A stretch of DNA of 64,000 nucleotides from Patescibacteria group bacterium (GTDB taxonomy: Bacteria; Patescibacteriota; Minisyncoccia; Phycocordibacterales; Phycocordibacteraceae): NCBI GenBank assembly GCA_040390125.1, contig JAZJYZ010000001.1, positions 70,428-134,427 on the forward strand, read 5' to 3'. The notes under the pieces are model-generated. The model searched no databases and was not told the origin of the DNA. It saw only the letters and a program-made list of their open reading frames with translations. This document shows positions 11,756 through 48,660 of the stretch, one piece after another; within the stretch, counting starts at the first letter, position 1, and each line of letters starts with the position of its first letter. The translations under genes were made by a program, and so were the position numbers.

Positions 11756-11799
11756 GGTTTAGTGCTCAGGGAACTCCCCTAAACGCTAAACGCTGTTCA

Positions 11800-12501
11800 C
11801 TAACCCCTGCGCTCTATCTCCTCAATCGATTTGTTGCGGTGCATGATTTCATCATTTCTCACTGACCTGAAGAATTCGTATTGATTCGGGGCCTCTCTAC
11901 CGTACCACTCAAGATATTTACTCACCATCGGTTTCTTTTTTAATTCTTCGCCGTTCGCTTCAAGAAAGCGAGAATACTGCTCAAATGCATGAGACTCAAA
12001 AAGATAGTTGAGCTCCAGTGCATTTCGTGGATTAAAAACATACAACCAGTAGGCCGCCCAAAAATAGAAGAAAGCAAAAAGCATCGGTATGACAGTGTGC
12101 ACAAGCACGTTGTCTTTCTGTTCAGCCTTGGCAAGCGCTGAAATTACTACAACATGCATTGTTTCGTTGTCTGTTGCTAAGCGAGCAAATTGCGAGAGTT
12201 TTGCAAGTCGCATAGCTTTACTCTCATTTTGATAAAACATTGTGAGAAAAGTAAATGCAGCAGAGTCCCATGAATGGTATGGGACGCGCGCAATCACTTC
12301 CACTGCTCTGAATTTCAAATATGAAGGTGCCTTGCCGTATACGGTATTCCCGCACCACACGAGCATGTGACCAAGAATACGTGGAAGTAAGTGGGGCTTG
12401 TAGTCATCGTATGGCTTTTTATATTCTTCGAGGGTGGTGGGATCATTGAGTGAAGCATTTAAAGCCTCAAGTTCTTCGTGCGTCTGCTCCATGCCGTACA
12501 T
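11800..12501 (-). CDS. Alternative oxidase (di-iron carboxylate quinol oxidase, AOX/PTOX family)
   Basis: 233 aa with four di-iron-binding-like motifs: AVEVIARVP, NETMHVVV, LFESHAFEQY and RNDEIMHRN. Confidence 0.6.
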   Translation of the reverse strand: MYGMEQTHEELEALNASLNDPTTLEEYKKPYDDYKPHLLPRILGHMLVWCGNTVYGKAPSYLKFRAVEVIARVPYHSWDSAAFTFLTMFYQNESKAMRLAKLSQFARLATDNETMHVVVISALAKAEQKDNVLVHTVIPMLFAFFYFWAAYWLYVFNPRNALELNYLFESHAFEQYSRFLEANGEELKKKPMVSKYLEWYGREAPNQYEFFRSVRNDEIMHRNKSIEEIERRG

Positions 12502-13030: not shown

Positions 13031-13234
13031 ACTAGGCGATGCCCCATCGGATCCGCAGGGATCATTTAGTGTTTAGGGGATAGGGTCTAGAGAAAACACA
13101 TAGGACAGTGTTTTTTCGGGGTTTTGTGCTAAATTTGAACGACTGTTCGTAGGCAACTGCTCCCGTAAGCGAAGCTTTCGGGGGCTCGCTCGAAGAGTAT
13201 GAAAATGCTAGCATTTTCATGTTCCTTCTCTCTC

Positions 13235-29434: not shown

Positions 29435-31603
29435 ATGCGGAAAAGAGGATTCATTCGTAAGCACAAACGAAACATTGCGTTAATACTAGGGGCAGGAGCA
29501 CTTTTTTCTTTTGGCGTACTCGCACTATGGGCAGTGTCTCTAAAGATTCCCGATATTACATCCTTAGAAACCCGCAAAGTTGAGCAGTCGACAAAAATTT
29601 ATGATCGCACCGGCACTGTTCTTCTGGACGACTTGAGTGAGAACATGAAACGTACCGTAGTTAAAAGCGACGAGATTTCGCCATACATAAAACAAGCAAC
29701 GGTAGCTATCGAGGACACGGAATTTTACAATCACATCGGAGTGCGGCCAATAGCATTTTTGCGAGCGGCTATTGTTAACGTACTTTCTCTCGGATTTGAA
29801 CAAGGAGGCTCAACCATCACACAACAGGTGGTCAAAAATTCGATACTCACACTCGACAAAACCATTGCCAGGAAAGTGAAGGAATGGATCTTAGCAATAA
29901 AACTTGAGCGGGTCCTCACGAAAGAGCAGATACTCGAGCTTTACCTAAACGGGAACCCCTATGGCGGACTCATTTATGGCGTTGAGGAAGCAAGTGAACA
30001 GTTTTTCAGCAAACACGCAAAAGATGTGAGCCTAGCCGAAGCCGCGTATCTCGCAGCACTACCCCAAGCTCCCACCTATTACTCACCGTACGGGAATCAC
30101 CAAGACGCCTTGGACACACGAAAAAACGTAGTGTTGTCGAGAATGAAGGAGCTCGGATTCATCACTACAGAGGAGTACGAACAGGCTAAGGCTGAAAGAG
30201 TGGCGTTTGCTCCGCAAGCAACATCTGGCATACGTGCTCCACATTTTGTTTTCTATGTCCGAGGTTTGCTCGAGCAAGAATTTGGAACAAGTGCACTCGA
30301 ACAATCCGGCTGGCGTATTATCACCACACTCGATGCCGACCTTGAAGCAAAGGCAGAGGAAATCGTTAAAAAGAGAGCTACTGAAAATGAAAAAAACTTT
30401 AATGCAGAGAATGCGAGTCTCGTTGCGATCGACCCAAAAACAGGAGACATCCTTGTAATGGCTGGCTCTCGAGACTATTTTGATCCCGAAATAAATGGTG
30501 CCTACAATATTACCCTTGCAAAACGCCAGCCTGGTTCATCATTTAAACCATTCGTATACGCAGCATCCTTTCTAAAGGGATACACACCTGACACCGTGCT
30601 CTTCGATGTGCCTACACAATTTTCAACCTCGTGCCCCCCAACAAGTCTCAGCAATACTCCCCCATGCTATGCACCACAAAACTTTGATGACAAATTCTTT
30701 GGCCCCCTAACCCTCCGCGATGCACTCGCACAATCAAGAAACATTCCCGCACTGAAAGTTCTCTATCTTGTAGGAATTAATAATGCACTATCGCTTGCAC
30801 GGTCTATGGGTATCTCAACCTTGGCGGGGGCCGACCGATACGGCCTCACATTAGTGCTCGGAGGCGGAGAAGTGACACCACTTGATATGACGAGTGCCTA
30901 CGGCGTCTTCGCAAATGAAGGTGTGCGAAACCCACATCGTGCACTACTGCGTATCGAAGATAAGGACGGAAAGGAAATAAAAACATACCCTCTATCGCCA
31001 GAGCGAGTCCTTGATCAGAATGTAGCCTTAAACATATCTGACATCCTATCTGACAACGTGGCACGCACCCCCGAGTTCGGATCAGACTCAGCACTTAACT
31101 TTCCGGGTCGCCACGTTACCGCAAAAACCGGCACAACCAACGACTATAGGGACGCCTGGATCATGGGTTATACACCAGACATTGCAGTGGGTGCGTGGGC
31201 TGGCAATAACGACAACACGCCCATGGTAAAGCGAATTGCGGGCTTCATCGTCGCACCGCTTTGGCATGAATTTTTCGAATACGCACTCACTAAGTTTCCT
31301 AATACCCCATTCCCTGAAGCACGGGCATTAGACAGTGCGAGCGATAAACCGATCTTGCGAGGAATATGGCAGGGGGGTGATGTAACCCCCGTTGATGGGG
31401 GTACTACTTCAGGGGCTGATGTAGGCAAAAACCGCATTACCGTATCGGTGCATTCCATTCTCTTCTGGTTAAATAAAGACGATCCCCGTGGAGCGCCTCC
31501 TAGTAATCCGAACGAAGACCCTCAATTTGCACGCTGGGAGTGGGGTGTTAGAAATTGGGCCACGCAACATGGACTTGTTGATGGAACCACAATCATTCAG
31601 TAG
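29435..31603 (+). CDS. Class A penicillin-binding protein (glycosyltransferase plus transpeptidase)
   Basis: 722 aa. GT51 motifs EDTEFYNHIG and GGSTITQQ. TPase motifs SSFKP, SRN and KTGTT. Confidence 0.85.
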   Translation: MRKRGFIRKHKRNIALILGAGALFSFGVLALWAVSLKIPDITSLETRKVEQSTKIYDRTGTVLLDDLSENMKRTVVKSDEISPYIKQATVAIEDTEFYNHIGVRPIAFLRAAIVNVLSLGFEQGGSTITQQVVKNSILTLDKTIARKVKEWILAIKLERVLTKEQILELYLNGNPYGGLIYGVEEASEQFFSKHAKDVSLAEAAYLAALPQAPTYYSPYGNHQDALDTRKNVVLSRMKELGFITTEEYEQAKAERVAFAPQATSGIRAPHFVFYVRGLLEQEFGTSALEQSGWRIITTLDADLEAKAEEIVKKRATENEKNFNAENASLVAIDPKTGDILVMAGSRDYFDPEINGAYNITLAKRQPGSSFKPFVYAASFLKGYTPDTVLFDVPTQFSTSCPPTSLSNTPPCYAPQNFDDKFFGPLTLRDALAQSRNIPALKVLYLVGINNALSLARSMGISTLAGADRYGLTLVLGGGEVTPLDMTSAYGVFANEGVRNPHRALLRIEDKDGKEIKTYPLSPERVLDQNVALNISDILSDNVARTPEFGSDSALNFPGRHVTAKTGTTNDYRDAWIMGYTPDIAVGAWAGNNDNTPMVKRIAGFIVAPLWHEFFEYALTKFPNTPFPEARALDSASDKPILRGIWQGGDVTPVDGGTTSGADVGKNRITVSVHSILFWLNKDDPRGAPPSNPNEDPQFARWEWGVRNWATQHGLVDGTTIIQ

Positions 31604-31605
31604 TG

Positions 31606-31700
31606 GGGGGGGCTTCCAGCTGTCAGCTTCTAGCTTTCAGCTTTCAGCTTTAATTTCAGAAAAGCTGGAAGCTGGCACCTGGAAGCTAGAAGCTAATTAG
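31606..31700. repeat. Oligo-repeat spacer forming a long imperfect hairpin (agctttcag / agctagaag words) between convergent genes; likely a bidirectional terminator
   Basis: cttccagctgtcagcttctagctttcagctttcagcttt-aatttc-agaaaagctggaagctggcacctggaagctagaagct. Confidence 0.55.
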
Positions 31701-31960
31701 CGGATATCCCTCACTATATTTCGAGCTTTAGGTATTTCTTGAAATAGCTCTGCAAGAATCGCACCCCTCGCAACTTGAATTGCACTTTTTGCAATAGAGG
31801 AACACTTAACAAACGCCACATTGTTAGAAATTGAAATATCTTCTTTTTTAACAGGTACTTTTGCAATAAAAGAAACTGAAGACGCAACGGCACGACGAAT
31901 CGCATCATCTGGCGGGGTGAGGTTCTGGAACCTGGCGAGAAAATCATTTACGAGTTTCAT
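31697..31960 (-). CDS. Small protein downstream of dnaN; possible DUF721/DciA-like
   Basis: 87 aa. The position immediately after dnaN is typical for DUF721. The family assignment is unverified. Confidence 0.3.
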   Translation of the reverse strand: MKLVNDFLARFQNLTPPDDAIRRAVASSVSFIAKVPVKKEDISISNNVAFVKCSSIAKSAIQVARGAILAELFQEIPKARNIVRDIR

Positions 31961-32025
31961 AAGGTGCTAGGTGCTAGGTGCTAGGTGCTAGCTTTAAAAG
32001 CTAGAAGCTAGTCCCTAGAACCTGA
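31961..32025. repeat. Oligo-repeat spacer ((ggtgctag)x4, agctagaag)
   Basis: aaggtgctaggtgctaggtgctaggtgctagctttaaaagctagaagctagtccctagaacc. Confidence 0.5.
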
Positions 32026-33126
32026 CTAACGATTCATCGGCATCACAAGGTAGGTGAACCCCTTTCCTTGGCTATCGGTCATAACCATTGGTTTCCCGGC
32101 GCCCGCCACAGAAAAAGTAACACTATCCCCCGCAACGATTGAGAGTGCATCAATGATGTATTTTGCATTAAAGTTTATATCGATATCCTCGCCGGTGAGC
32201 ACTGCGGGAATATGATCAACCGTCTCCCCCACTGACGCATTAACCGCACGAACCGTAAAAGTCTTCTCTGAGGGTTTAAGAGAAATGTGGACCTGATTAA
32301 ATGAGTCAGTGAATATGGATACTTTGCGAAACGCACGTATAGCATCCTCTTTGAGACAGGTTGCGGACGCAACGTAATCTCGAGGAATAATCGCATGATA
32401 GTCAGGAAAGGCACCATCAATAGTTCTTGAAGTAATGTGCCCAAAATCAGAAATAAATGAGCACTGATTATCCCCCACACGTACTTCAACCTCAGACCCA
32501 AACTCAATCGCTCGCAGGATATCAAGAACATTCCGAGCAGGAATCAATACCGAACCAAAAGAACTTTTTGTTTTGATGGGTATTTTTACCTCAGCAAGAC
32601 GAAATGAGTCGGTAGCCACCGCAACCAATTCCCCTTTTTCTAAAGTAAGAGAAATACTTGAGAGCTCAGGCTTAACGCTCGACACTGATGCAGAAAATGA
32701 AACCGACTTTAGTGCACCAATAAACTCACGGACTGGTAATACAGTAGACGTACCCACACCCTCCTTTACATACGGCAGTGTAGGAAATTCCGATGGATCG
32801 ACTAACGTAATTGATGTAGTCCCCCTATCCCCATCAATAATAAGATTATTACCTGATGTTTTTAAAATTAATTTCTGATCAGTAAGTGCTGAAACTGTTT
32901 GCGACAAGATATGTGCAGGGACAGCAATAACCCCATCCTGACTCGTCTTTGCTTTAAGTACCACCTCAACACTCAAATCAAGATTGGTGGCACGAAGAAC
33001 AGCCCTCCCACCTTCAACTACTATCAAAACACAACCAAATACTGGAAGTGAGAGACTTTTATTACTCACCTTAGAGGCAATACCAACAGCCCTCTCTAAA
33101 TTCTCTCTTAATATCTCAATTTTCAT
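32026..33126 (-). CDS. dnaN: DNA polymerase III beta sliding clamp
   Basis: 366 aa, three-domain size, with MKIEILRENLERAVGIASKVS...LPVFGCVLI. Confidence 0.85.
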   Translation of the reverse strand: MKIEILRENLERAVGIASKVSNKSLSLPVFGCVLIVVEGGRAVLRATNLDLSVEVVLKAKTSQDGVIAVPAHILSQTVSALTDQKLILKTSGNNLIIDGDRGTTSITLVDPSEFPTLPYVKEGVGTSTVLPVREFIGALKSVSFSASVSSVKPELSSISLTLEKGELVAVATDSFRLAEVKIPIKTKSSFGSVLIPARNVLDILRAIEFGSEVEVRVGDNQCSFISDFGHITSRTIDGAFPDYHAIIPRDYVASATCLKEDAIRAFRKVSIFTDSFNQVHISLKPSEKTFTVRAVNASVGETVDHIPAVLTGEDIDINFNAKYIIDALSIVAGDSVTFSVAGAGKPMVMTDSQGKGFTYLVMPMNR

Positions 33127-33358: not shown

Positions 33359-34705
33359 TCATTTCAACATCCCACGAATTTCCTCTATTTGGGTTTTTAA
33401 ATCACCATCAGTAATGATTCCTCCACGAACTTTTTCACATGCATGAATAACAGTTGTGTGATCTCGCCCACCAAAAACAGTCCCTATAGCTGGATACGAT
33501 AGATGAAAATCTTCCCGGAGTATGTACATCATTATTTGACGAGGACGAACCACCTCTCTGCGTCTTGTTTTTGCATACATACTCGCCTCATCGATGTTAT
33601 AGAATTCAGCAATTCTTGAAATAACATGCTTTACAGACACAATACGTTTAGGTCTGGCGGTATTTTTTATAAGATCTTTTATTTGATCTTCTCCTAGTAT
33701 TCCCTTGAGTTGTATTTGGCAAAGAATAGTATTTAACATACCCTCTATTTCACGGATGTTTCCTGGCACCGCCATAGAAAGGCTCTCTATAGCCGTATCT
33801 GAGAGGTTGAGGTTCATTGATTCAGCTTTCGTTTTAATGATTGCCATTCTGGACTCATGGTCAGGTTCATTTATGGCGACAGCCATCCCCGCTACAAAAC
33901 GAGACTTGAGACGTTCCGTTATGTCAGGGATGAGGTTTGGGTGTTTATCGCTTGAGCAAACGATTTGCTTGTTCGCATCGTGGAGTGTATTGAAAAGGTG
34001 GAAAAATTCTTCTTGGATCGTCCCCTTTTTCGAAAAGAACTGTATGTCGTCGATTATAAGAACGTCATACGAGCGATATTTCTCTTTAAATGAAGGGATA
34101 CTGCGGTTATTGATGGCGTTCATGAACTCAAACCCAAATCTCTCAGCAGTAAGATAGAACACTTTCTTTGATGGGTAGGCTTTTTTTATCTGATTACCCA
34201 CCGCTTGAGTGAGATGCGTTTTCCCGCGTCCTGTTTCTCCGTATACGAAGAGTGGGTTGTAGGCAATACCGGGATTTTTAACAACCACTTGACCTGCAGT
34301 GAAGGCGAGCTCATTAAAAGGCCCCACGACGAAGGTATCGAAGGTGTAGCGTGGATTAAGATTGTCTGAGCGGTTGATGTAGTAGTCGGACAAAGGAAGC
34401 TCTGATTCGGTTCGAGTTTCTACGATGACCTTTTCTGGTGCTCTTTTAGGGCTTTCTTTTGAAACGATATATTCGACGCCACGAAGTGTGTCAACAAAGC
34501 CACGGATGGTCTTTAAAACGAGTTTTCCGAAGCGTTCAGATATCCATTCTTTCGTCAGTTGGTTGGGAACCCCGACAAACACAACCCCGTCTTCTATCCG
34601 TACAATGTGAGTTTCGCCGAACCACATCTTGAAACTCGCAGGAGATATTGAAAGCTCTATGTTCGTAAGCGTATTTTCCCAGAGTTGTTTTGTGTCAAGT
34701 TCCAT
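33359..34705 (-). CDS. dnaA: Chromosomal replication initiator DnaA
   Basis: 448 aa. Walker A GETGRGKTHL, IIDDIQF, and a C-terminal DNA-binding helix (...VFGGRDHTTVIHA). Confidence 0.9.
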   Translation of the reverse strand: MELDTKQLWENTLTNIELSISPASFKMWFGETHIVRIEDGVVFVGVPNQLTKEWISERFGKLVLKTIRGFVDTLRGVEYIVSKESPKRAPEKVIVETRTESELPLSDYYINRSDNLNPRYTFDTFVVGPFNELAFTAGQVVVKNPGIAYNPLFVYGETGRGKTHLTQAVGNQIKKAYPSKKVFYLTAERFGFEFMNAINNRSIPSFKEKYRSYDVLIIDDIQFFSKKGTIQEEFFHLFNTLHDANKQIVCSSDKHPNLIPDITERLKSRFVAGMAVAINEPDHESRMAIIKTKAESMNLNLSDTAIESLSMAVPGNIREIEGMLNTILCQIQLKGILGEDQIKDLIKNTARPKRIVSVKHVISRIAEFYNIDEASMYAKTRRREVVRPRQIMMYILREDFHLSYPAIGTVFGGRDHTTVIHACEKVRGGIITDGDLKTQIEEIRGMLK

Positions 34706-35052: not shown

Positions 35053-35367
35053 ATGTTGTCGAAAAAAGAGCGCGTTTCAAGGCTCACATTCCAAAAGCGA
35101 CCTGTACGTACAGGTCGCTTTATATATGGCTCTATAAAAGGGTTTGAGGGAGATCCTGCTGGGGCCGTTGTCGTTTCAAAAAAAGTCTGCCGTACGGCTC
35201 CAGCACGAAATAAGCTTAGACGAAGGATTTACAATATTCTCCGTCCTCTCATCCGCACCAAGGCACTTCAAGGTAACGTTATCGTGTATCCAAATGCACT
35301 GGCTATGAAGGCTCCGTTTCAAGAGCTGAAGAAAGAACTGGAGAAGCGTTTAGGGGTTAGCGTTTAG
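35053..35367 (+). CDS. rnpA: RNase P protein component
   Basis: 104 aa. LSKKERV...RNKLRRRI... is basic and RnpA-like, and its position after rpmH fits. Confidence 0.75.
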   Translation: MLSKKERVSRLTFQKRPVRTGRFIYGSIKGFEGDPAGAVVVSKKVCRTAPARNKLRRRIYNILRPLIRTKALQGNVIVYPNALAMKAPFQELKKELEKRLGVSV

Positions 35368-35450
35368 GGGCTAGTGTTGACAGAAAGGTAAAAAATATAG
35401 AACCCTACTTCGCTAAACGCTAAACACTAGCCCCTAACCCCTCTCCTGCG
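35368..35450. repeat. Oligo-repeat spacer forming an inverted repeat (ggggttagcgtttaggggctagtgtt ... aacactagcccctaacccct)
   Basis: Seen directly. It contains the ctaaacgctaaac word shared with other junctions. Confidence 0.55.
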
Positions 35451-39567: not shown

Positions 39568-39574
39568 CTGTTCA

Positions 39575-39738
39575 TTATAAGGGATGGGGAAGCTTTCAGC
39601 TTTCAGCTTTCAGCTTTCAGGGGGGAAATCAGCAGGGAGGCTTCTAGCGGACAGGCGATGTTTCATCGGATCCGTAGGGATCATTTAGCGTCTAGCTTTA
39701 ACTGCAGAAGCTAGTCGCTAAACGCTAGCCGCTATCCC
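39575..39738. repeat. Oligo-repeat spacer ((agctttcag)x3, agctagtcgctaaacgctagc) plus a 32-nt motif shared with 13045-13076
   Basis: Seen directly in the sequence. Confidence 0.55.
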
Positions 39739-41550
39739 CTAGCTGTTTCCCTCTCTTTTCTCCCGTGCTATCGAAAGCAACTGGGATGGGTCTGAGGTAA
39801 TTATCTGGTCTTCTGTGTAGGAGGCGATGATTTTTATGGCTACGTGCTTAAGACCTGCGAAGAAAATACCTTCACCGACGTCAGATTCTAGAAGCAGGTA
39901 TTTCTCCTCCTCGGTTAAGTTGAAGGTTTTTTGCACGGCCTCTATGGATGTGGGTGACTGCTTGAGAAGAATCTGAATAGAAGAGTTGGTGAGCATCGGC
40001 AAACCGTAGGGAGACTTCAAGAAGTCTTCTACGTCTTGAGTAATAGTGGCGAGCCCCAGATAGTATTTTCTTCCACGTTTCGCCATACCATAGAGGAATG
40101 CAGCAGTGTCTTCAGATTTCATCATCCACCACGCCTCGTCAATGACGAGCAGACGTTTACGCAGGTCCTTCCTGACCGCATTCCAAATAAAGTGCGTAAT
40201 GATATACATCGCAATCGTTTTTAGCTCGTCTTCCATGTTTCGAACTGAAAACGCCACGAACTTTTTGTTGATGTCTACGTTTGTTGGTCGGTTAATGAAG
40301 CCAGACCACGTACCTTTTGTGTATTTTGTAACTCTCTGCACCAAGGACTCGCTTCCTTCCATGCCTGCAAGCACAAGTTCGAAGTCAGACAAAAGCGGCG
40401 GCTCCATGTTGGTGAAGTCGTTGGCACCAGTGATGTCTTTAAGTGCGTACGTTTCTGTAATGGCCCGATCAATAATTGCATCTTCTTCAGGGGTAAGACC
40501 GCCAAGCATCAACCGAAACAATCCCACTAAGTTGATTATGTTTGATCGCAAGATGTCAGCCGGCGATTCATCTTCACGTGGCACCGGCAAATCGAAAGGG
40601 TTGATGCGGTTTTCTGAAGACAGTGAAATATTGAAAAATCTTCCACCAACGGCGTTTGCCAGGTACTCGTATTCGCTTTCAGGGTCTATGACGATGACTT
40701 CAGTGTCGAACATGAGCGACCGCAATATTTCAAGCTTCGTACCATATGACTTTCCGGAGCCAGATTTCGCAAAGGTGACGGAGTTATAGTTTTCCAAGGA
40801 AAATCTGTCGAACAAGATTAACGATGAGTTGTGTCTGTTAATGCCGTACAGAATTCCCTTGTCGCTTGTGAGGTCGAATGAAATGAATGGGAAGAAGCTT
40901 GAAAGCGGAGCAGAGTTCATTTTTGAGTTAACGGCGAGCTGGTCATCCCCTATCGGTATGACGCTTCGAAATCCCTGCTCTTGCTGGAAGAGAGCTGGTT
41001 TTATGTATACGAGTTTTGCGTCAAGAATCGAACGCATTTCGGCCTCTGTTTTGTCGAGCTCATCTTGGTTCGTGCCATAAATCGATATATAAAGACCAAC
41101 ATCAAATATGCGTTCTTGTGCCTGCTGGAGTTGATCACGGAGTTGTTCAATGTCTTGGGAGGCCGTGTCGAGTATTGGGTCACGCACCATCCCCTTCTCT
41201 TGGCGTGTCATTCTTTGGCTTTGAACCTCGGCAACCTTTTTCTGTAGTTTTCGAAGGACTGCCGCAGTGTCGATTGGATGGATGAATATAGAAATATCCA
41301 AAACCCTGTCACGGTTAATGATTGGTGCAAACCATGTGCCAGACAAAAAGCGAGGATATGAAATCACGTAAAAGGTACGCACCAGCTTGTCGCCCAAGTT
41401 CATCTCACGAGGAGTAATTTTGAGAGCTGACGGTGCAATAATGTCAGCAAAGTCTAACTTCGCCGCTTCGTAAATGTCTTTTGGCAAAAACGGCGTCAGT
41501 GCGTCTTTCTTTTTTGTTCCTTTCCCAGTGAATGCGTCGAAAATTCCCAT
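39739..41550 (-). CDS. Type IV secretion/conjugation ATPase, VirB4/TraC/TrbE class (C-terminal ATPase portion)
   Basis: 603 aa with Walker A FAKSGSGKSYG, DPESEY and Walker B LLVIDEAWWMM. The overall pattern matches VirB4-family ATPases. Confidence 0.7.
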   Translation of the reverse strand: MGIFDAFTGKGTKKKDALTPFLPKDIYEAAKLDFADIIAPSALKITPREMNLGDKLVRTFYVISYPRFLSGTWFAPIINRDRVLDISIFIHPIDTAAVLRKLQKKVAEVQSQRMTRQEKGMVRDPILDTASQDIEQLRDQLQQAQERIFDVGLYISIYGTNQDELDKTEAEMRSILDAKLVYIKPALFQQEQGFRSVIPIGDDQLAVNSKMNSAPLSSFFPFISFDLTSDKGILYGINRHNSSLILFDRFSLENYNSVTFAKSGSGKSYGTKLEILRSLMFDTEVIVIDPESEYEYLANAVGGRFFNISLSSENRINPFDLPVPREDESPADILRSNIINLVGLFRLMLGGLTPEEDAIIDRAITETYALKDITGANDFTNMEPPLLSDFELVLAGMEGSESLVQRVTKYTKGTWSGFINRPTNVDINKKFVAFSVRNMEDELKTIAMYIITHFIWNAVRKDLRKRLLVIDEAWWMMKSEDTAAFLYGMAKRGRKYYLGLATITQDVEDFLKSPYGLPMLTNSSIQILLKQSPTSIEAVQKTFNLTEEEKYLLLESDVGEGIFFAGLKHVAIKIIASYTEDQIITSDPSQLLSIAREKREGNS

Positions 41551-41552
41551 AT

Positions 41553-42227
41553 TTATTGAGTTTCAGCTGGCTGTTCCATAACAATTGGTTTTTCTAATTC
41601 GCCCGGATTAAATTCCTTATACAAAAGTTCAATCACCTCTTCAGTGCCAAGGGGTACTGTTCGCACTCCCGTGCGGGCAAGTCCTTGCTCCACCGTTCCC
41701 ATTCTTTGCTCAAGTTGAGTGCGGTGCTCTTCAAATCCTATGGCCCCTTTATCTTGCCTCGCAGAAAGATCAGTTTTCCCGAAAATTTTGTTTTGCACAG
41801 TCTTTTTAATATCAAGCATTGGAGGAGCATACGGAATCACTATAAAGAAGTGCTTGCTCATGATGTTGGCACGTTCAGTGAATGTTTTTATGAATTCTAT
41901 ATATTCACGCACCTGTATTTTCATGAGCTCCTCTGTTTGTGCTTTGAGACGCTCTTCAAGGAGTGCGATATAAGGACGGATGTCCAGTTTTCGAGATTGA
42001 ATGAAAAACTGTACGCTGAAATCGAGCGAATTCATGAAGCTCTGAAATTGCGAGAGTATCGCATTCTGCTCGTCTTCGGATTTAAGTGCGAAGTTCACGG
42101 ATGACGCTAGCATCACCCCCACGAGCGTTCCGCTTTTCATTACCATCACGCCCCCACGCACTTCTTTCACCGGAACGAAGTCCTGTGCCGCTTTTGTTTT
42201 TGCTGTTTTTTCGTCTCCGCCTGCCAT
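41553..42227 (-). CDS. Protein encoded immediately upstream of VirB4 with a 4-nt overlap; possibly a separately encoded VirB4 N-terminal domain
   Basis: 224 aa. 224 + 603 is about the size of a full VirB4 (around 800 aa). ATGA overlap. Confidence 0.4.
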   Translation of the reverse strand: MAGGDEKTAKTKAAQDFVPVKEVRGGVMVMKSGTLVGVMLASSVNFALKSEDEQNAILSQFQSFMNSLDFSVQFFIQSRKLDIRPYIALLEERLKAQTEELMKIQVREYIEFIKTFTERANIMSKHFFIVIPYAPPMLDIKKTVQNKIFGKTDLSARQDKGAIGFEEHRTQLEQRMGTVEQGLARTGVRTVPLGTEEVIELLYKEFNPGELEKPIVMEQPAETQ

Positions 42228-42249
42228 AGTATTTGAAAGGTTCTAGCTT

Positions 42250-42630
42250 CTAGGTGCTAGCTTTAAGGCTAGCAATCACAGCGACAAGCATTCTTGAAAC
42301 TTCTTCGAGCATTGCCGTCGATTCATTATAGTCGATTTTTTCTCCGTATTCTAAGCGTTTAGCCATTTCCAACTGTGTTTCTAGCTCTGAAGTAGATCCT
42401 AATGCGATGTGTAAAAATTGTGCAAAATCTTTTCTGGTACCACGTGATCTACCTTCGGCTATATTGGAAGGAATAGAAACAGCACTTCTTCTCATTTGAG
42501 AAATAAGTCCAAATTTTTCTTCCGATGGAAACTTTGAAGTAAATTTGTAAATAACCATTGCTAAATCTACCCCCTTTTGCCAAACAATCAGGTCTTTATG
42601 AGAACGTATTTGAGTTTTAGTTTTTTGCAT
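42250..42630 (-). CDS. Four-helix-bundle protein ('23S rRNA intervening-sequence protein' family), paralog 1
   Basis: 126 aa with LIVWQKGVDLAMVIYKFTSKFPSEEKFGLISQMRRSAVSIPSNIAEGRSR...FLHIALGSTSELETQL, the family signature. Confidence 0.7.
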   Translation of the reverse strand: MQKTKTQIRSHKDLIVWQKGVDLAMVIYKFTSKFPSEEKFGLISQMRRSAVSIPSNIAEGRSRGTRKDFAQFLHIALGSTSELETQLEMAKRLEYGEKIDYNESTAMLEEVSRMLVAVIASLKAST

Positions 42631-42674
42631 TTGAAAGCTAGCACCTAGAACCTAGTCCCTAGCACCCCCCCCCT

Positions 42675-43112
42675 CTACTGTTGTTTCTTGTCACTATATA
42701 CACTCTCCTTTATATCCAAACTCCACGCCAGATCTTTTATCTTGTTCGAGGTTGCTGAGGGCACATATTTTGAAGGATCTTCAGCACGTATTTCTCCTGG
42801 CAGTATGATTTCGTCAGGCAGTACCGTTTTTGATTGCTTCTTTTCCCAAATGTAGAGTTTAGTGCGAAATAGGTATTGAAAACCTGCCTCAAGAGCATTG
42901 ATGAGTGGTCGGTCATTTATTTTATAGAATGCGAGTCCAGCACCTAGTGCCGCTACGGGTCCGCCTATAAGGATGGCAAGCCAATGGGGAGCAATGAGCC
43001 ACATGGCAAACAAGAACCCACCTCCTCCAATGAGATAGATGAATTGCACTGCGGTTAAGGGACCGAAGATTTTATCTTCAACTTCTACGAATTGTGGTAC
43101 TTGGAATTGCAT
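42675..43112 (-). CDS. Small membrane protein, VirB3/PrgI-like candidate
   Basis: 145 aa with 2 TM helices near the N-terminus. Its size and position upstream of VirB4 fit. Confidence 0.35.
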   Translation of the reverse strand: MQFQVPQFVEVEDKIFGPLTAVQFIYLIGGGGFLFAMWLIAPHWLAILIGGPVAALGAGLAFYKINDRPLINALEAGFQYLFRTKLYIWEKKQSKTVLPDEIILPGEIRAEDPSKYVPSATSNKIKDLAWSLDIKESVYSDKKQQ

Positions 43113-43171
43113 GGAAGTGAATAGAACAGTGAACAGAGTACAGTGTACAGTGAACAGAGAGAAAAATGGAG

Positions 43172-43564
43172 TTACGTATGTGCTTTTGTTTTCAATACTG
43201 CGATAAGTTTTGAAAGCATGAGTTTAAGTTCAAGGGTTTGTTGGCGTAAATTGACACATTCTTTATTTGAGGAAAATTTGAGTTTTTCGGCTATAACAAT
43301 TTGAGTATCTAACTCCGCAAGTGAACCAAGTGCAATGTGCAAAAACTGTATAAAGTCTTTAGTGGTATTACGTGATTTCCCTTCAGCAATATTTGATGGA
43401 ATAGAAACCGCTGACCTCCGCATCTGAGAGATAAGTCCAAATTTTTCATCGGACGGATATTTTGATGTCGCAATATATATTTTTTCTACAAGGTTGATTG
43501 ATTTCTGCCACACCAATAAATTCTCATGCGAAGCTACACGGCCACCGTTATCAGAGTCACTCAT
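43172..43564 (-). CDS. Four-helix-bundle protein ('23S rRNA intervening-sequence protein' family), paralog 2
   Basis: 130 aa with LLVWQKSINLVEKIYIATSKYPSDEKFGLISQMRRSAVSIPSNIAEGKSR...FLHIALGSLAELDTQI, over 60% identical to paralog 1. Confidence 0.7.
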   Translation of the reverse strand: MSDSDNGGRVASHENLLVWQKSINLVEKIYIATSKYPSDEKFGLISQMRRSAVSIPSNIAEGKSRNTTKDFIQFLHIALGSLAELDTQIVIAEKLKFSSNKECVNLRQQTLELKLMLSKLIAVLKTKAHT

Positions 43565-43629
43565 ATTTTCTAGCTTCTTAATTCAGCGTCTTAAAGCTGT
43601 ACACTGTTCACTAAACACTATCCCCTACC

Positions 43630-44436
43630 TCATTCCACTGGTTCTCTATACGGGTCCACTCCTCCTTTATATATTGGTTTTGCTGATGTTGGCGACGGTG
43701 GGGGCGTTGGTGCTTTTTCTGCGACCGGTGTTTCTTTTGCAGGCTGAACGCTCTCCGCAGGAGCTGGTTCAGATTTAGGGGTTGTTTCTAGCCCGAGTTT
43801 TTGTAGGGCGATGTTTGGCTGTATTGGAGAGATACGAGGTGCGCTCGAGTCAGTCTCTCTTGGTTTCAGTTCTATTGAGTTGTCATGCTCTGGTACTGGA
43901 GTTTTTTCAGCTTCAAGGAGTGCTTCTGCAAGCTCCTTGTCCGCCTCCTCTTGCAATTTTTGAGCCTCCTCTTGCTCGGCTTTTTCTAGTGCCAACAGTT
44001 CCGGGTCATCGTCTGCCAGGTACTCTATTCTTTCTCTACGTGCATTTTCGGCTATTTCTTCTGCGGTAAGTTCTCGTTCGGGTTCGGAGACTCCCTCCGC
44101 AACTTTCTTAGGTTCGAGGATACCCTCTTTGAGGCGTCTTTTTGCTTCCTTAAATAGGCGGTCATTCATGTCAGCAACGAGTTCATGCGTTATTGCGTTC
44201 GACAGCTCCGGCATCCATTGGTGCAGATTTGTTTCAAGGGCCGACTCTGCTTCCAATCCCATCAACGTGACGTTGCCAATTTCGCTTATTATCATAAGCT
44301 CCCGTAAATCCAGGTTGAACTTTTTTTGTATCCCAATATAGATATTTGTTAAGGCTTCTGTACCTAGGAAATCAGAAACCGACTCAGGTAGTTTTTTTCT
44401 CGCTTCATCTTTTTCTTCGTTGGTGTGGGGTTTCAT
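43630..44436 (-). CDS. Acidic coiled-coil protein with a Pro/Thr-rich C-terminus, hypothetical
   Basis: 268 aa. E/K-rich heptad-like region, then PAPAESVQPAKETPVAEKAPTPPPSPTSAKP. Confidence 0.45.
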   Translation of the reverse strand: MKPHTNEEKDEARKKLPESVSDFLGTEALTNIYIGIQKKFNLDLRELMIISEIGNVTLMGLEAESALETNLHQWMPELSNAITHELVADMNDRLFKEAKRRLKEGILEPKKVAEGVSEPERELTAEEIAENARRERIEYLADDDPELLALEKAEQEEAQKLQEEADKELAEALLEAEKTPVPEHDNSIELKPRETDSSAPRISPIQPNIALQKLGLETTPKSEPAPAESVQPAKETPVAEKAPTPPPSPTSAKPIYKGGVDPYREPVE

Positions 44437-44439
44437 AGG

Positions 44440-47400
44440 TTATGTGGTTGGTGGTGGCAGTAGTGTATTGAATTCATCTGAATCTACAAATTGTTGCACA
44501 TCTCTACTCAATGCAACATCAGGTCGCCTACGGAATTCTTGCAGTGTTCTTCTAATATACTGCAGTCCTGTAGTATCACCTCTGCTTTGTGCCTTGCTTA
44601 TGATTGCACGAAGTGCTGACGCCCTTGGTGCTGCAGCTACTGCGTTTGGAATAAATTCATACGGCACCTGAGCCCACTGTTCATCCGTGCGACCCTCCAT
44701 GAATTTGCGGGTACTCTCCAATACTTGCGGGGTAAAGCGTGCTGCGGGGTCGATATTTCTAAAATGATCTTCCCATGTCGTTGGTGTTACTAAGTTACCC
44801 GCAGTAGGAGTGTCTGTGGAGGTGTTTACTAAACTACTTGCTACAGGTTCAGTCCCTGTGTATGTTTGTCCAACTAAACGAGGTGCATCAATGTCACTTT
44901 GGCCTCCTGGCATTCGTGCTTGTGAGCCCGACAGTGACATATTTGCGGATGGTTCCTCGGCATCCTCTGGCTCGCTATCGGCTTCATCAGGTCCTGATAC
45001 GTTTACATCACTATTATTTGGGATGATTTGTGGTTCGTAGATTGGCTCGCTTCTGGTTATTGTTGGGGGTTCTATTGTCTGCCCACCCCCGTCCGGACTA
45101 CTACCTCCCGGGTTATTCCCGTTATCGCCCCCATCATTTCCGTCGTCTGGATCATCATCTTCGTCGTCCCCATCATCACGGTTATCATTCATAGAAGCTT
45201 GTCCAGGTACAAATTCAGTCGTGAATGGGTCAGAAGGTAGATTATTTTTCCCATACCAGTTTCTACGGATTTTGTTGATTTCTGCCAATCGCTCTTCGTT
45301 TGGCCAACCGAATTGTTTTTTGATGTCGGGGTTTGTTAGGGCATTTGCAATGAAGGTGTCGTCGCCGTGCATAAGCATATTTTCCCATACTGCCGTTTTC
45401 TCGGCTTTATCCTGTCCTGAAAAGAGTGCTGTCAATCTGTCCGCATCTTTTACACCGAATACGGTCGAGATAGTGTGCGCCTCTCTTTTACCTAAGAGAC
45501 CCATTTCGAAGTCATTTTTCCCATCATGCCATCCTGGGATACCCGTTGGATCGTTGGGGTCATACCCACCTTCAATCATTTTCATCCTGTCGAAAATGAT
45601 ATTCAAAGGATCTGAACCAACCACTCCTCTAATTGCCTCTGCTTTTTCCTGTGGCGTTTTCTTTCCTACAAGGGCCGCGGCAATTTTTTTGTCATACTCT
45701 TTTCTTGCGTCACGAATTGCTCGCATCCTTTGAGCTTCGTTTTTGATACTGCTGAGTTCTGTTTTTTTGCCGTCCGGTGATGTTAGTGTTAAATTTTTAT
45801 TTAATGTAGCTTCAGCAAAATCTCGATCTCGCTTTGCTATCTTATAAGTGCTTACAGTGACCCCAGACAATTCACCGTCACCGTAGGCCCTCTCGGCACC
45901 CTCATAGAGATCGATTGTCTTTTGTCTATCTGCCATGAGACTTGTTCGACGTTTATAACCTCTCTCGACACCGTCATATTCTACGGTGCCGCCTACCTCT
46001 GGGACCATATTCTTGTTTTTTCCAAGTCCAAGTGCTAGCAAGGCCAAGCTGTATTCGTCACGCATGTCGGTCATCGGTGAGCGTTTCATACTGCCTGCTT
46101 TTCGTTGTTCAGTGGAAGAAAGAAGTTTGTCCCGTTTGATTTCAATTGCTGCGGTACTGCTGGTGCCAAGCCATAACTCCGGCATGGCACGCAGTTGTGC
46201 ACCGGTCAGTGCATCGTGTCCAGTACCAATGTGGTCAGCTTTGATGAGTGCCTTCAGCTCGTCATTTGGGAGGTATTTTGACTGATAGTTGTACGGAACC
46301 AATATGCGCCTACCATACTCCTCGCTACCGCGGATAAGCTTGCCATCCTCTACATCTTTATTTATATCCTTAATCATGCCTACAAACTCACCTGTGCGGA
46401 GTCCCCACATTGCATCTTTGATGTCATGTCTTATGGAATGATCATCTTGGAGTGCTTTAAATTGCGGGGTTGAAAGTAGCGTTGAATACTGAAGAAGTGA
46501 TTTAGGGTCCTTGCGGTATTCACGTTTCAAGAATTCCGGAGAAAACACGTCAACAATACTTTGGGCTTCGCCTCGCAATTCACGTGATTTGAAATGGTTA
46601 TCCAAACGTTCGTAGTAGCCCCAGTCCCCGTTGCTTTCATCGGCTGCGGCACCGTTAACGCCTTTTTTCTTTTTGCCGACCCCTTGTTTGATGCGAAGTG
46701 TAATTTCGTCGTCGTTTTCCAATCTATCGAGACCGGTATCTTTGTCTTTCACCATTATTTTTGCTTTATCAAGACCACCTCGAGCTCGCAATTCTTGCAG
46801 GTTTTCCCACCGCATCTTGCCATTTTTGTCTTTCACTTTCTGAAGGCCAGTACGTGCCAACACCTCCTCGTCGGTCTCCATTTCCCCGTTCTCTTTCCTT
46901 ATTTTGTGATCACGCAGTGCTTGCCTATTCCAAAATTCGTCTTGTGTCTCCACTCTGTCTTTAGAGAGTTTTTGTCCGGTCGTTGGGTCTATCTCCCCTT
47001 TCTTAAGTGTTTTTGGTTTGAAGCCGTCATTGAATTCTCTCTGGAAGTTTCTTTGTGCTTTTTCTAGAGCTGGACGTTTATCTGCGAGTTCTTTTTTTCT
47101 CTCCTCGTCCTTTTTAATTTCGTCTATGGCGATTTCACGAGCTTCTCTTTCTTTTTTTACAGTTTCATAACCTTTGAATCCTTCGTGTTTTTTGCCGTCT
47201 GCGTCGGTGTAGGCGCCGAACTTTTTGTCTGCAAGTTTATCCAAAACCTGAGCTTTTATAACTCGATCAGCACCTGTTCTCATAAGAAATTTTCCAAGGC
47301 GTGTCTCTTTTGCTATGTATTCGTCAAATTTATATGTAGCTCTTTCAGCCACTCTCCCCACAGTATTTCGTGCTGCAACAGCTCCAATCCAACTGGTAAG

Positions 47401-48660
47401 GCCAATGTAACCGTTTGGCATCCAGTTGGTCCATTTACCCGCAGCCTTGTATACATCGCCGAGCCTTTTTGCTTGTTCACTTAAGCCTTTCGCCATTGTA
47501 AGCGACTGTTGCATAAAAACAGTCGCCACTATGAATGTCAGCATGGTGCCAAGAAGCGCCTCGAGCCCAACTGCATTCACGCTAAAGAGTGCCCCCTTAG
47601 AGCCTTCTAGAATGGTGAGTGAAATACCTACAAGAAGAAAATATACCGGGGCAAAAAATGACTGACTGAAAATATCTTCCCACCACTCCTTTGCGTATTT
47701 GTTGACACGAGGTATCGCCATTGCCGCTATGCCAACGGGCGAGGTGATTATCAAAAACACCAGTGCAACGAAGCGTCCCACGAGCAGGCCTATGACTGAT
47801 AAAAAGAGGAAAATGGTTGTACTTTCAAAACCTATGAGGAAAATATTAAAGACGAGATGGTCGAGAGTGCTTAAAACAGTGAGACCGGTGGTATTGAATA
47901 TGCCCTGCTCGGGAGAGCGGAGCTTTTGATAATCTGCAATCTGCATAAATCTGCTGGCGATGTTGCACTTGAAGAATGTTTTATCTACACATGATTCCGT
48001 GGTGATGACACTTTCATATATTTTCGTTGCAACAAAATTTGATGAATCAATGATGGCTCCGGCAAAGAAGTAGCTGAAATTGATGAGGAGTGCTCCAATG
48101 ATGAGGCGCACAAGCCACTTTTGTACGTTTATATTAGGCAGATGGAGGATCGTCCCGATGGCGGTAGCGATGAGTCCGCCAATGATGCCGATGTTTGCGA
48201 GGTCGCGCATTATCCCCCACGCAATGCGTACCCCCACAGCGTCTGAAGAAGTGACGAAACGCCCCATCTGTACGACTGTGGTATTTACAACGAAGTTCAT
48301 AAGTGAACCCACAAAAGCCAGGACGATACTCATTACTATGAGTATGATTTCGGTAAGTTGAACTAGTCCTTTTAGAAGATTGTCAAAAGGTTGCAGAAGC
48401 GTGTTTGCGATAACCATTTTTGCTCCAGAAGCAAACTTCTCCACTCCACTAGGAGAATCGTCCGAAGATGTGGGTTCCGCTGTGGTGGCAGCCGCAGAAG
48501 GTGTTGCAGGAGCTGGAGTCGTTGCTGAGGCAGGTGCAGTAGTTGCAGGAGGAGGTACAACTGTTGCCGAAAGAGCACTGAGAGGCAGGGCTCCTGCAGT
48601 AAGGAAAACGAGAACTCCAAAAAGTATTAGGAGTTTTTTCATGCCTAATAGTTCTTGCAT
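44440..48660 (-). CDS. Giant VirB6/TrbL-like polytopic membrane protein with an extension of about 1000 aa
   Basis: 1406 aa. Signal peptide plus Thr/Pro/Ala-rich linker, then about 6-8 TM helices (residues about 100-400), then a long hydrophilic K/E/D-rich region ending in an acidic low-complexity tract (DNRDDGDDEDDDPDDGNDGGDNGNN). The alternative start MKKLL at 48642 would abolish the overlap with the upstream gene. Confidence 0.5.
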   Translation of the reverse strand: MQELLGMKKLLILFGVLVFLTAGALPLSALSATVVPPPATTAPASATTPAPATPSAAATTAEPTSSDDSPSGVEKFASGAKMVIANTLLQPFDNLLKGLVQLTEIILIVMSIVLAFVGSLMNFVVNTTVVQMGRFVTSSDAVGVRIAWGIMRDLANIGIIGGLIATAIGTILHLPNINVQKWLVRLIIGALLINFSYFFAGAIIDSSNFVATKIYESVITTESCVDKTFFKCNIASRFMQIADYQKLRSPEQGIFNTTGLTVLSTLDHLVFNIFLIGFESTTIFLFLSVIGLLVGRFVALVFLIITSPVGIAAMAIPRVNKYAKEWWEDIFSQSFFAPVYFLLVGISLTILEGSKGALFSVNAVGLEALLGTMLTFIVATVFMQQSLTMAKGLSEQAKRLGDVYKAAGKWTNWMPNGYIGLTSWIGAVAARNTVGRVAERATYKFDEYIAKETRLGKFLMRTGADRVIKAQVLDKLADKKFGAYTDADGKKHEGFKGYETVKKEREAREIAIDEIKKDEERKKELADKRPALEKAQRNFQREFNDGFKPKTLKKGEIDPTTGQKLSKDRVETQDEFWNRQALRDHKIRKENGEMETDEEVLARTGLQKVKDKNGKMRWENLQELRARGGLDKAKIMVKDKDTGLDRLENDDEITLRIKQGVGKKKKGVNGAAADESNGDWGYYERLDNHFKSRELRGEAQSIVDVFSPEFLKREYRKDPKSLLQYSTLLSTPQFKALQDDHSIRHDIKDAMWGLRTGEFVGMIKDINKDVEDGKLIRGSEEYGRRILVPYNYQSKYLPNDELKALIKADHIGTGHDALTGAQLRAMPELWLGTSSTAAIEIKRDKLLSSTEQRKAGSMKRSPMTDMRDEYSLALLALGLGKNKNMVPEVGGTVEYDGVERGYKRRTSLMADRQKTIDLYEGAERAYGDGELSGVTVSTYKIAKRDRDFAEATLNKNLTLTSPDGKKTELSSIKNEAQRMRAIRDARKEYDKKIAAALVGKKTPQEKAEAIRGVVGSDPLNIIFDRMKMIEGGYDPNDPTGIPGWHDGKNDFEMGLLGKREAHTISTVFGVKDADRLTALFSGQDKAEKTAVWENMLMHGDDTFIANALTNPDIKKQFGWPNEERLAEINKIRRNWYGKNNLPSDPFTTEFVPGQASMNDNRDDGDDEDDDPDDGNDGGDNGNNPGGSSPDGGGQTIEPPTITRSEPIYEPQIIPNNSDVNVSGPDEADSEPEDAEEPSANMSLSGSQARMPGGQSDIDAPRLVGQTYTGTEPVASSLVNTSTDTPTAGNLVTPTTWEDHFRNIDPAARFTPQVLESTRKFMEGRTDEQWAQVPYEFIPNAVAAAPRASALRAIISKAQSRGDTTGLQYIRRTLQEFRRRPDVALSRDVQQFVDSDEFNTLLPPPTT

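Follow-up and report, generated by a model that had tools for sequence, protein, structure and literature searches.

What are two genes of a family named for ribosomal RNA doing in the middle of a type IV secretion system (T4SS)-like operon? The question is raised by a 64,000-nt stretch of the genome of a Patescibacteria group bacterium (assembly GCA_040390125.1, contig JAZJYZ010000001.1, positions 70,428 to 134,427; this whole stretch is called the window), which holds two genes of the PF05635/TIGR02436 four-helix-bundle family, that of the 23S rRNA intervening sequence (IVS) proteins. Such genes are here termed IVP, the window copies being IVP1 and IVP2. On balance we favour the reading that the units around them, cassette 1 (42228-42674, with IVP1) and cassette 2 (43113-43629, with IVP2), are IVS-type cassettes, in which a promoter-less PF05635 gene lies in the loop of inverted heptamer arrays, like the rRNA IVSs but in mRNA operons. 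Each is inserted in operon orientation, precisely at a gene junction, after the stop codon of the upstream gene and before the start codon of the downstream one. The element would work like an rRNA IVS outside rRNA. Searchable full texts, outside which most subscription journals lie, gave no account of PF05635 genes set between inverted heptamer arrays or acting as operon cassettes, so that an earlier notice is possible.

To our knowledge, the PF05635/TIGR02436 proteins are very common, often with many copies per genome, and have had solved structures for years with no assigned function. Judged by profile matches, both window IVPs are plain members of this family. PF05635 (23S_rRNA_IVP) matches IVP1 with E=5e-41 (139.7 bits) and IVP2 with E=1e-37 (128.8 bits; cut-off 33.8); TIGR02436 ("four helix bundle protein") matches them over their full length at 132.5 and 127.3 bits (cut-off 24), and NF008911 at 142.2 and 141.1 bits (cut-off 137). 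The initial annotation had recognized them as two paralogous IVS-family genes flanking a VirB3-like gene, and these matches bear it out, the gene between them being of the PrgI family. Its estimate of more than 60% identity was too high, the two proteins being 57% identical (68/120) with 76% positives (E=9e-47); no third copy is found within the 64-kb window. A profile of 12 IVP proteins matches the solved structures 2GSC (XCC0516; E=2e-33) and 2RLD (a Bacteroides protein; E=1e-26), each deposited with 5 chains. Q45, R48, N56, E59 and E82 are invariant in this profile, which has a conserved QxxR-x7-NxxE...E motif, and the median isoelectric point of the IVP proteins is 9.3. The basic, probably pentameric IVP may act on nucleic acid, the heptamer arrays being one possible target.

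The minus-strand order, read from 44436 down to 39739, is a 268-aa gene, a 65-nt spacer, IVP2, a 59-nt spacer, PrgI, a 44-nt spacer, IVP1, a 22-nt spacer, a 224-aa TraC-like gene and a VirB4-like ATPase, with a T4SS pilin gene also downstream in the operon. Three junctions are referred to below: site A, upstream of PrgI; site B, PrgI/TraC-like; and site C, TraC-like/VirB4. The features are as follows.

43565-43629, minus strand: 5' spacer of cassette 2; holds the 5' arm (43597-43626) and 8 sense stops, in all three frames.
43172-43564, minus strand: IVP2, 130 aa, PF05635/TIGR02436; cargo of cassette 2, site A.
43113-43171, minus strand: 3' spacer of cassette 2; (GAACAGT)n array at 43124-43157, 4.9 copies; ends 11 nt before the PrgI start.
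42675-43112, minus strand: PrgI-family (VirB3-like) host gene, between both cassettes.
42631-42674, minus strand: 5' spacer of cassette 1; G9 tract at 42665-42673 right after the PrgI stop, then the 5' arm.
42634-42660, minus strand: 5' arm of cassette 1; sense TGCTAGG GACTAGG TTCTAGG TGCTAGC; ends 7 nt before the IVP1 ATG.
42250-42630, minus strand: IVP1, 126 aa, PF05635/TIGR02436; cargo of cassette 1, site B.
42228-42264, minus strand: region of the 3' arm of cassette 1, the arm itself at 42238-42264; overlaps the last 15 nt of IVP1.
41553-42227, minus strand: TraC-like gene, 224 aa, downstream of cassette 1.
39739-41550, minus strand: VirB4-like ATPase.

Period-7 tandem arrays stand at all four IVP boundaries. 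Tandem Repeats Finder reports arrays at 42241-42263, 42638-42666 and 43124-43157 (period 7, 3.3-4.9 copies), and the fourth, at 43597-43626, is visible by eye (CTGTACA/CTGTTCA/CTAAACA/CTATCCC on the plus strand). The arrays on opposite sides of each IVP gene are reverse complements of each other, which places the gene in the loop of a potential stem. The arms of cassette 1 (42238-42264 and 42634-42660, the former ending 10 nt before the TraC-like start codon) match over 27 nt at 89%; those of cassette 2 (43128-43150 and 43597-43619) match over 23 nt at 78%, with a core of 16 nt at 94%. The inverted-repeat scores are 19.5 and 13.5, compared to a shuffle maximum of 12, and 0 of 2000 shuffles reach either. 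When the sense RNA is folded, the minimum-free-energy and centroid structures are both closed by the long-range arm stem, for both cassettes. Both thus have the complementary termini, closing the element into a long stem, that characterize an IVS, and their arrays have the make-up of intergenic tandem heptamer repeats (at least 3 copies of 7-nt units, noncoding, often inverted). The arm sequences of cassettes 1 and 2 are unrelated to each other. Stop-rich oligo-repeats had been described by the initial annotation at every boundary; the repeats are indeed at each one, and the wealth of stops holds for the upstream spacers (4 and 8 sense-strand stops, in all three frames) and fails for the downstream ones (1 and 0). 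What it missed were the inverted, stem-forming arrangement of the brackets and the gene-less versions described below. No sigma-70-like promoter or intrinsic terminator was found at the cassette borders, no known RNA family (Rfam) matches the arms, and there is no rRNA in the window, both cassettes lying between protein-coding genes.

Related genomes show the same junctions both with and without such units. A scan with the VirB4-like protein gave 80 species-level Patescibacteria (Paceibacteria/Parcubacteria) genomes at 73-88% identity, and the junction census covers 73 related species-level genomes with all three junctions; closer relatives, L161-L169, were found via PrgI homologues at 76-88% identity (labels of this form stand for compared loci or contigs from relatives, metagenomes and plasmids). 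The gene order, 1406-aa gene, 268-aa gene, PrgI, TraC-like, VirB4, 322-aa gene and pilin, is kept. An IVP gene is present in the operon in 8 of the 73 genomes, at site A in 4, at site B in 3 and at site C in 3, and one relative has a further insertion upstream of the 1406-aa gene. Empty site B junctions measure from 3 to about 110 nt (3 nt in L003, about 20 nt in L004) and are without heptamer arrays. Among the closer relatives, site B is filled in L161, L163, L165, L167 and L168 and empty in L162 and L164, while L169 has a decayed remnant, the last 41 codons of an IVP within two complementary arms. At site A, the window and L168 each have an IVP cassette and L165 has a hairpin with no gene; site C is occupied in L163 and L168; and L003 and L066 carry an IVP pseudogene and a truncated copy, respectively. 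The cassette is present, absent or decayed, in other words, at several junctions of one conserved operon. The arms found at the same junction are of different types (CTAGG-, GTTTAGG-, GAAGCTW- and AGCTGSC-) and all still pair, the two arms of one cassette staying complementary while their sequence drifts.

All IVP copies of the operon set are on the operon strand. Conserved presence across related operons, as would be expected of a T4SS component, is not seen, given 8 occurrences in 73 at varying positions. All 13 IVP copies in the related loci, each taken to 10 kb on either side, lie in the T4SS-like operon, while only 6 of 80 metagenomic copies are next to T4SS genes; the operon is therefore a hot spot and not the sole home of these genes, and the candidate explanation of IVP as an exclusive T4SS-operon gene is ruled out.

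The arms are a property of the gene family. In the related genomes the IVP copies are bracketed by inverted oligo-repeat arrays, 11 of the 13 having scores that reach or approach the 99th percentile for other genes, with arm types (CTAGG, TATAGAA, TAGCTNN, CAACAAC/GTTGTTG and A-rich) that vary by cassette. An independent sample of 80 metagenomic loci was found with the IVP protein alone (5-sequence alignment), and 67 of its copies could be tested; 43 of these (64%) have inverted-arm scores above the 95th percentile of 284 same-contig genes (5%; Mann-Whitney p=5e-18). The predicted duplex energy of cognate arms averages -35.1 kcal/mol, as against -21.9 kcal/mol when the same 5' arms are combined with the 3' arms of other cassettes (paired p=3e-12; a smaller set was also tested) and -22.9 kcal/mol for the flanks of ordinary genes not adjoining a cassette. 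Strong cognate pairing is seen for 61% of IVP genes and 18% of ordinary genes on the same contigs. Period-7/8 arrays occupy 26% of the IVP 5' flanks and 45% of the 3' flanks versus 2-3% of controls (12-15x), and the dominant period among 96 cassettes is 7, less often 8. Cassettes with more similar proteins also have more similar arms (Mantel r=0.24, 0/500 permutations), from which it follows that gene and arms are inherited together, as one heritable unit. The sense strand upstream has an excess of TAG (1.93 vs. 0.94 per 45 nt, p=3e-4), as has the antisense strand downstream (1.76 vs. 0.62 per 45 nt, p=2e-5), so that the stops point inward from both sides of the cassette. The upstream neighbour is on the same strand for 55 of 60 metagenomic IVPs, compared to a background of 78%.

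Cassettes are also found in unrelated housekeeping operons of other phyla. The neighbours of the metagenomic IVPs include genes for succinate dehydrogenase (sdhA/B), rml/dTDP-rhamnose synthesis, ABC transporters, L13, KsgA, DnaB and cytochrome b. On cyanobacterial plasmids, 5 of 6 IVP copies carry flanking repeats. In a Nostoc edaphicum plasmid the IVP gene lies between nrdB and nrdA, with (TAGGGAG)8 upstream and (TCCCTAC)5 downstream; in a Geminocystis plasmid it lies between a parA-like gene and parB, with inverted heptamers, which also accompany the IVP gene of a Stanieria plasmid; and in Pseudanabaena galeata plasmid pPg_01 (L173, 46268-46627) it lies between cas6 and cas4. Since these plasmids show the same layout, the architecture is ancient and no peculiarity of the candidate phyla radiation (CPR). 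Nostoc PCC 7120 encodes an identical protein (WP_010994075.1) on plasmids gamma (L170) and alpha (L171); the (CTGCCYT)n array downstream is shared, and the two upstream flanks are unlike each other and adjoin transposase genes (ISL3 in L170), that side being interrupted by an insertion sequence (IS), and this copy may have moved within a larger IS-associated segment. A fixed array size of five units was considered and dropped, the window arrays having 4-5 units but the cyanobacterial ones up to 16. PF05635 has been reported as "CRISPR-associated" (PMC10910872, PMC3936711); this may be a side effect of cassette insertion into operons, compare the cas6/cas4 copy.

Taken together, these comparisons largely uphold what the initial annotation had made of the locus. 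It had proposed small insertion units inside an operon, and the few occupied genomes and short, repeat-free empty sites agree with this, such sites being found, as it had suggested they might, in related genomes, including L162 and L164 among the close relatives. Other copies of the family are bracketed as well, in related genomes, metagenomes and cyanobacterial plasmids, and repeats border ordinary genes far less often than they do IVP genes. Its picture of gene plus flanking repeats as a mobile cassette is supported, "mobile" being read from comparative patterns only.

The site B cassette, as judged from substitution patterns, is old, and its protein is functional under purifying selection; it is hence no recent arrival. 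Comparison of IVP1 with the orthologue in L163 gives differences at 9% of the non-synonymous and 68% of the synonymous positions (dN/dS of about 0.06, with dS saturated), and the substitution pattern of PrgI is similar. The 33-nt 5' arm is identical at 32/33 positions in the window, L161 and L163 despite saturated neutral sites, so that the IVP protein and the 5' arm are both under purifying selection. The 5' arm of L161 is intact, but its 3' partner has changed (TAG to TGA, CGG or TGG), and pairing has fallen to -26 from -43 kcal/mol. The nearest sampled relative of IVP2 is IVP1; since their arms are unrelated, arms must turn over faster than the protein while staying complementary.

The window also contains heptamer arrays with no gene between them. 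About 15 other spacers hold period-7 arrays, beside genes such as dnaN, rnpA, TsaE and that for a penicillin-binding protein (PBP), and complete gene-less hairpins are found at 31612-31694, 31962-32015, 35345-35429, 11750-11805 and 39692-39740. The best described are these.

31612-31694, no strand assigned: gene-less hairpin, (GCTTTCA)n/(AAGCTGG)n with a 9-nt loop and a G8 tract before it; the junction is 12-29 nt in L001-L004.
31962-32015, no strand assigned: gene-less hairpin, (AGGTGCT)n / AGCTAGA..., between dnaN and an 87-aa gene; 3-20 nt in relatives.
39591-39743, no strand assigned: gene-less arrays in the spacer between VirB4 and the next gene, (AGCTTTC)4.3 and a GATCC-N4-GGATC hairpin.
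Within 39591-39743, no strand assigned: second hairpin of this spacer, TTTAGCG.CTAGCTT/AAGCTAG.CGCTAAA.

Because the corresponding junctions of L001-L004 are only 3-29 nt, the two hairpins around the 87-aa gene are insertions as well. The heptamer types of the window's gene-less hairpins match its own cassettes or the site B cassettes of close relatives, and the 31612 hairpin shares a 12-mer with the site A hairpin of L165. The decay series of the pseudogene in L003, the truncated copy in L066 and the remnant in L169 shows that internal deletion of a cassette leaves gene-less heptamer hairpins like those of the window. Away from the IVP genes, intergenic period-7 arrays number 26 per 256 kb in IVP loci versus 29 per 1150 kb elsewhere, a 4x difference, and most of the 80 related loci have none.

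Two smaller observations concern the same arrays. A 25-nt element, CATCGGATCCGYAGGGATCATTTAG, occurs twice in the window (13045-13069 and 39664-39688) and holds a small GATCC-N4-GGATC hairpin; the copy at 13045 precedes GTTTAGG-type heptamers, that at 39664 the AGCTAG/CGCTAAA-type hairpin, and a sequence resembling it, ATCCGCAGGGAT, is present in the site A spacer of L161. There are only two G/C homopolymers of at least 7 in the 64 kb, G8 at 31605-31612 and G9 at 42665-42673 (sense strand), each one base past a stop codon and abutting the outer edge of a heptamer array; the orthologous cassettes of L161 and L163 have merely GAGG where the window has G9.

As to the host operon itself, its neighbourhood is kept in the closest relatives out to dnaA, dnaN and a PBP gene, which places it next to oriC on the chromosome. 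The origin gene set comprises dnaA (33359-34705, minus), dnaN (32026-33126, minus), the 87-aa gene (31697-31960, minus), PBP1 (29435-31603, plus) and rnpA (35053-35367, plus), in an order kept in L001-L004. The first operon gene (44440-48660) encodes a 1406-aa protein with no Pfam match; hydrophobic segments lie close to its N-terminus, and it has long stretches that are of low complexity, acidic and rich in Gly/Asp. It is 24-36% identical in relatives, compared to 73-88% for VirB4. A TATAAT box stands about 5-10 nt before the start codon (ATG) of the 322-aa gene next after VirB4 (window about 39568-39590, sense strand minus); the box is conserved at the same junction in L162, L163, L168 and L169 with a conserved GTTTCCCCCYTAA motif just upstream. 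A box so near the ATG suggests that a leaderless transcript starts there and that the VirB4 operon thus ends at 39739. In relatives, the junction upstream of PrgI and its neighbours are hot spots for other small inserted genes. These include RAYT-like Y1 transposase genes with palindromes of their own that resemble repetitive extragenic palindromic (REP) sequences (L025:8008-8790, L035:1990-2544 and L037:8118-8813), a GxxExxY (TIGR04256) gene between inverted arrays (L024:8730-9137), and two more inserted ORFs (L070:124-1471). Besides this bracketed GxxExxY gene, of the PD-(D/E)XK family, two more lie near IVP genes, so that the bracket may carry more than one cargo; a search for GxxExxY homologues on plasmids, as a second-cargo test, gave no match, the three examples being confined to other loci.

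How such a cassette might operate is suggested by the rRNA IVSs. By analogy with them, the arms would pair in the polycistronic transcript to give a stem of about 20-27 bp, to be cut by RNase III; the cut would free the cassette RNA, that is, the IVP mRNA, and sever the operon transcript at the junction. It is this proposed severing at a junction that would make the insertion tolerable, and the inward stops in all frames would release ribosomes entering the cassette. The weakest step is the spread of a cassette that has no transposase, which we can only guess to follow DNA uptake and to use homologous recombination between conserved flanking genes or between similar arrays. The reading of the units as IVS-type cassettes predicts RNase III-dependent cutting of the operon mRNA at the arms and binding of the IVP to its own arrays.

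Several results weigh against this reading. Pairing specific to RNA is not supported: each strand has 79 wobble-type mismatches, with no G.U enrichment on the sense strand, and sense duplexes are only marginally better than antisense ones (51 vs. 32), a difference in energy that is not significant (Wilcoxon p=0.16). Although the family name implies residence in rRNA, 0 of the 80 sampled metagenomic copies sit there, so that it is the literature that ties the cassettes to true IVSs. Within the 64-kb window no RNase III signature is encoded. About 36% of the metagenomic copies are without significant arms, and the 16 and 10 heptamers flanking the IVP gene of L173 are in direct, not inverted, orientation. 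There is no target-site duplication, the longest direct word outside the arms being 3.27 nt vs. 3.22 nt for non-cognate pairs in 62 cassettes, with arm boundaries that are fuzzy, and no conserved termini, recombinase or transposase goes with the cassettes. In L161 the 5' arm is intact while its 3' partner has decayed, which indicates a role of this arm beyond pairing. Long vertical retention and purifying selection, finally, suit a useful gene more than a purely selfish one.

The survival of the L161 5' arm leads to a different account, possible but on the improbable side, in which the IVP homopentamer is a trans-acting partner that binds the heptamer arrays, as RNA or DNA, with about one unit per subunit. 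The arrays at its own gene would be autoregulatory or maintenance sites, and gene-less arrays would be further targets or non-autonomous derivatives, as with RAYT and REPIN (REP doublets). This fits the anatomy of the cassette but puts function in the recognition of repeats by a protein rather than in arm-arm pairing. It would account for the near-perfect conservation of the 5' arm where synonymous sites are saturated, for the fourfold density of gene-less arrays in loci that carry an IVP, for the match of the window's solo heptamers to resident or closely related cassettes, and for the way arm type tracks protein type; the high isoelectric point, the five invariant polar residues, the 4-5 units of many window arrays beside the five chains of the crystallized homologues, and the nucleic acid binding of the related Avd protein (literature cited in PMC10053308) all point the same way. 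It is hard to reconcile with the unrelated arms of the 57%-identical IVP1 and IVP2, with same-junction cassettes whose proteins are 60-66% identical and which use different heptamers, with GxxExxY genes in similar brackets, and with cyanobacterial arrays of 8-16 units. Intronless homing, in which the IVP or a co-resident GxxExxY PD-(D/E)XK nuclease cuts an empty junction and repair copies the cassette in via the flanking genes, seems to us unlikely. The presence/absence polymorphism of cassettes between highly conserved genes (T4SS core, sdhAB, nrdAB, rml) is what homing would produce, as is the lack of target-site duplications; the same junctions attract GxxExxY nuclease-family and RAYT-like genes, GxxExxY and IVP genes occur together on contigs L126 and L146, and in CPR rRNA insertions IVP ORFs fill the niche of LAGLIDADG/GIY-YIG endonucleases (PMC11270868). 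PF05635 has no known nuclease motif, however, most cassettes have no nuclease gene nearby, the site B cassette has long been kept vertically, and homing leaves both the inverted arms and the gene-less hairpins unexplained.

The arrays might, in principle, be an ordinary genome-wide feature of spacers (slippage repeats, terminators or insulators), adjacent to IVP genes by coincidence; we consider this very improbable. The period-7 arrays beside ordinary genes in about 15 other window spacers would agree with it, as would the heptamer repeats, often inverted pairs, known and unexplained in Xanthomonas and Nostoc (PMC4692102). It is largely refuted, however, by the within-contig controls, in which ordinary genes rarely have cognate arms (18% vs. 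61% by pairing, 5% vs. 64% by arm score); related genomes without an IVP have no repeats at these junctions, most related loci hold no intergenic period-7 array, the association also holds in cyanobacteria, and arms match their own partner better than those of other cassettes. Little speaks for the IVPs as parts of known systems, either Avd accessory proteins of diversity-generating retroelements (DGRs) or small subunits or chaperones of the T4SS, which is the least probable account of all. Weak matches to the bAvd/DGR Avd models, and the embedding of the genes in the T4SS-like operon, co-oriented with it and under purifying selection, could be so explained, but the Avd scores are far below cut-off (PF22296, 22.7 and 23.1 vs. 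40 bits; NF033474, 27.5 and 23 vs. 80 bits), the [YF]xDD motif of reverse transcriptases is absent from all window ORFs over 200 aa, 65 of 73 related operons do without an IVP, and homologues lie in unrelated operons.

Beyond the IVS-type cassette, a wider proposal can be put forward tentatively, as a possibility of low probability: that PF05635 proteins and heptamer hairpins form a two-part, cross-phylum system, in which the pentamer recognizes the arrays, the cassette is autonomous and the hairpins are non-autonomous or decayed. Jointly with this, and at the same low probability, the system would take in the window repeats, the short tandemly repeated repetitive (STRR) sequences of cyanobacteria and the Xanthomonas GGGAATC pairs. 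Repeats of this class, unexplained since 1990, have long been known from cyanobacteria and Xanthomonas and are here shown in CPR genomes too. In the cassettes, whose gene and arms are gained, kept and lost together, these repeats and the PF05635 family, two long-standing unknowns, become one testable object. Were the wider proposal true, a large protein family would gain a function and a class of heptamer repeats an origin, and the pair would define a new type of element, mobile or self-maintaining, that resides in rRNA helices as well as at operon junctions. CPR genomes are small and tightly packed, and even core operons beside oriC are colonized by the cassettes.

Comparison with known systems separates the cassettes from most of them. 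A transposon or miniature inverted-repeat transposable element was rejected, there being no target duplication, no termini common to copies and no transposase. Avd (bAvd, PF22296/NF033474) is a distantly related small, basic four-helix bundle, pentameric and nucleic-acid-binding according to PMC10053308; identity with a DGR Avd was set aside on the model scores and the missing [YF]xDD motif, and template/variable repeats were not searched for. Homing-endonuclease genes and integron cassettes, like the IVP cassettes, are small promoter-less genes between conserved genes with presence/absence polymorphism, and integron cassettes share structure-defined, sequence-variable inverted repeats; unlike in these systems, no nuclease or integrase was identified here, there are two arms rather than one attC, and no cassette array is formed. 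The REP/REPIN-RAYT systems have hairpin intergenic repeats, as solo doublets or as inverted brackets around a small gene, as the cassettes do, but the cassettes have no Y1 transposase and their repeat sequence is not conserved within a genome; a RAYT/REP origin of the arrays was rejected, since palindromes of another kind border the RAYT-like genes of L025, L035, L037 and L128.

The heptamer repeats described from cyanobacteria (STRR, Nostoc) and Xanthomonas are closer to the arms, being tandem 7-nt units, intergenic, often inverted and kept in position between species (PMC4692102). The GGGAATC repeats of Xanthomonas form 70-75 convergent inverted pairs and Nostoc has GGGGAYT repeats, both unexplained (PMC4692102). 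Unlike those repeats as described, the arrays here bracket a gene and have cassette-specific sequences. Both Nostoc and Xanthomonas carry PF05635 genes, which PMC4692102 does not mention in connection with the heptamer repeats.

Closest of all are the rRNA IVSs of Leptospira, Coxiella burnetii, Brucella and CPR bacteria. In the Coxiella IVS this ORF is enclosed by terminal inverted repeats; they pair into a 28-bp stem, which RNase III cleaves at its middle (PMC4990558). The IVSs of Leptospira and Brucella carry the ORF too, and an early proposal, given in PMC4990558, was that it serves mobility; IVP ORFs also occur in CPR rRNA insertions (PMC11270868). Unlike in these, the host transcript of the cassettes is a protein-coding operon and not rRNA, and the arms are tandem heptamer arrays with inward stops; the window ORFs are intact and under purifying selection, whereas the ORF of the Coxiella IVS is decaying and apparently untranslated. 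In both, however, a PF05635 gene is the sole ORF of an element of about 430-520 nt, the complementary termini give a stem of 20-28 bp, and the element lies in a host transcript with no promoter of its own and is sporadically present or absent (PMC4990558, PMC11270868).

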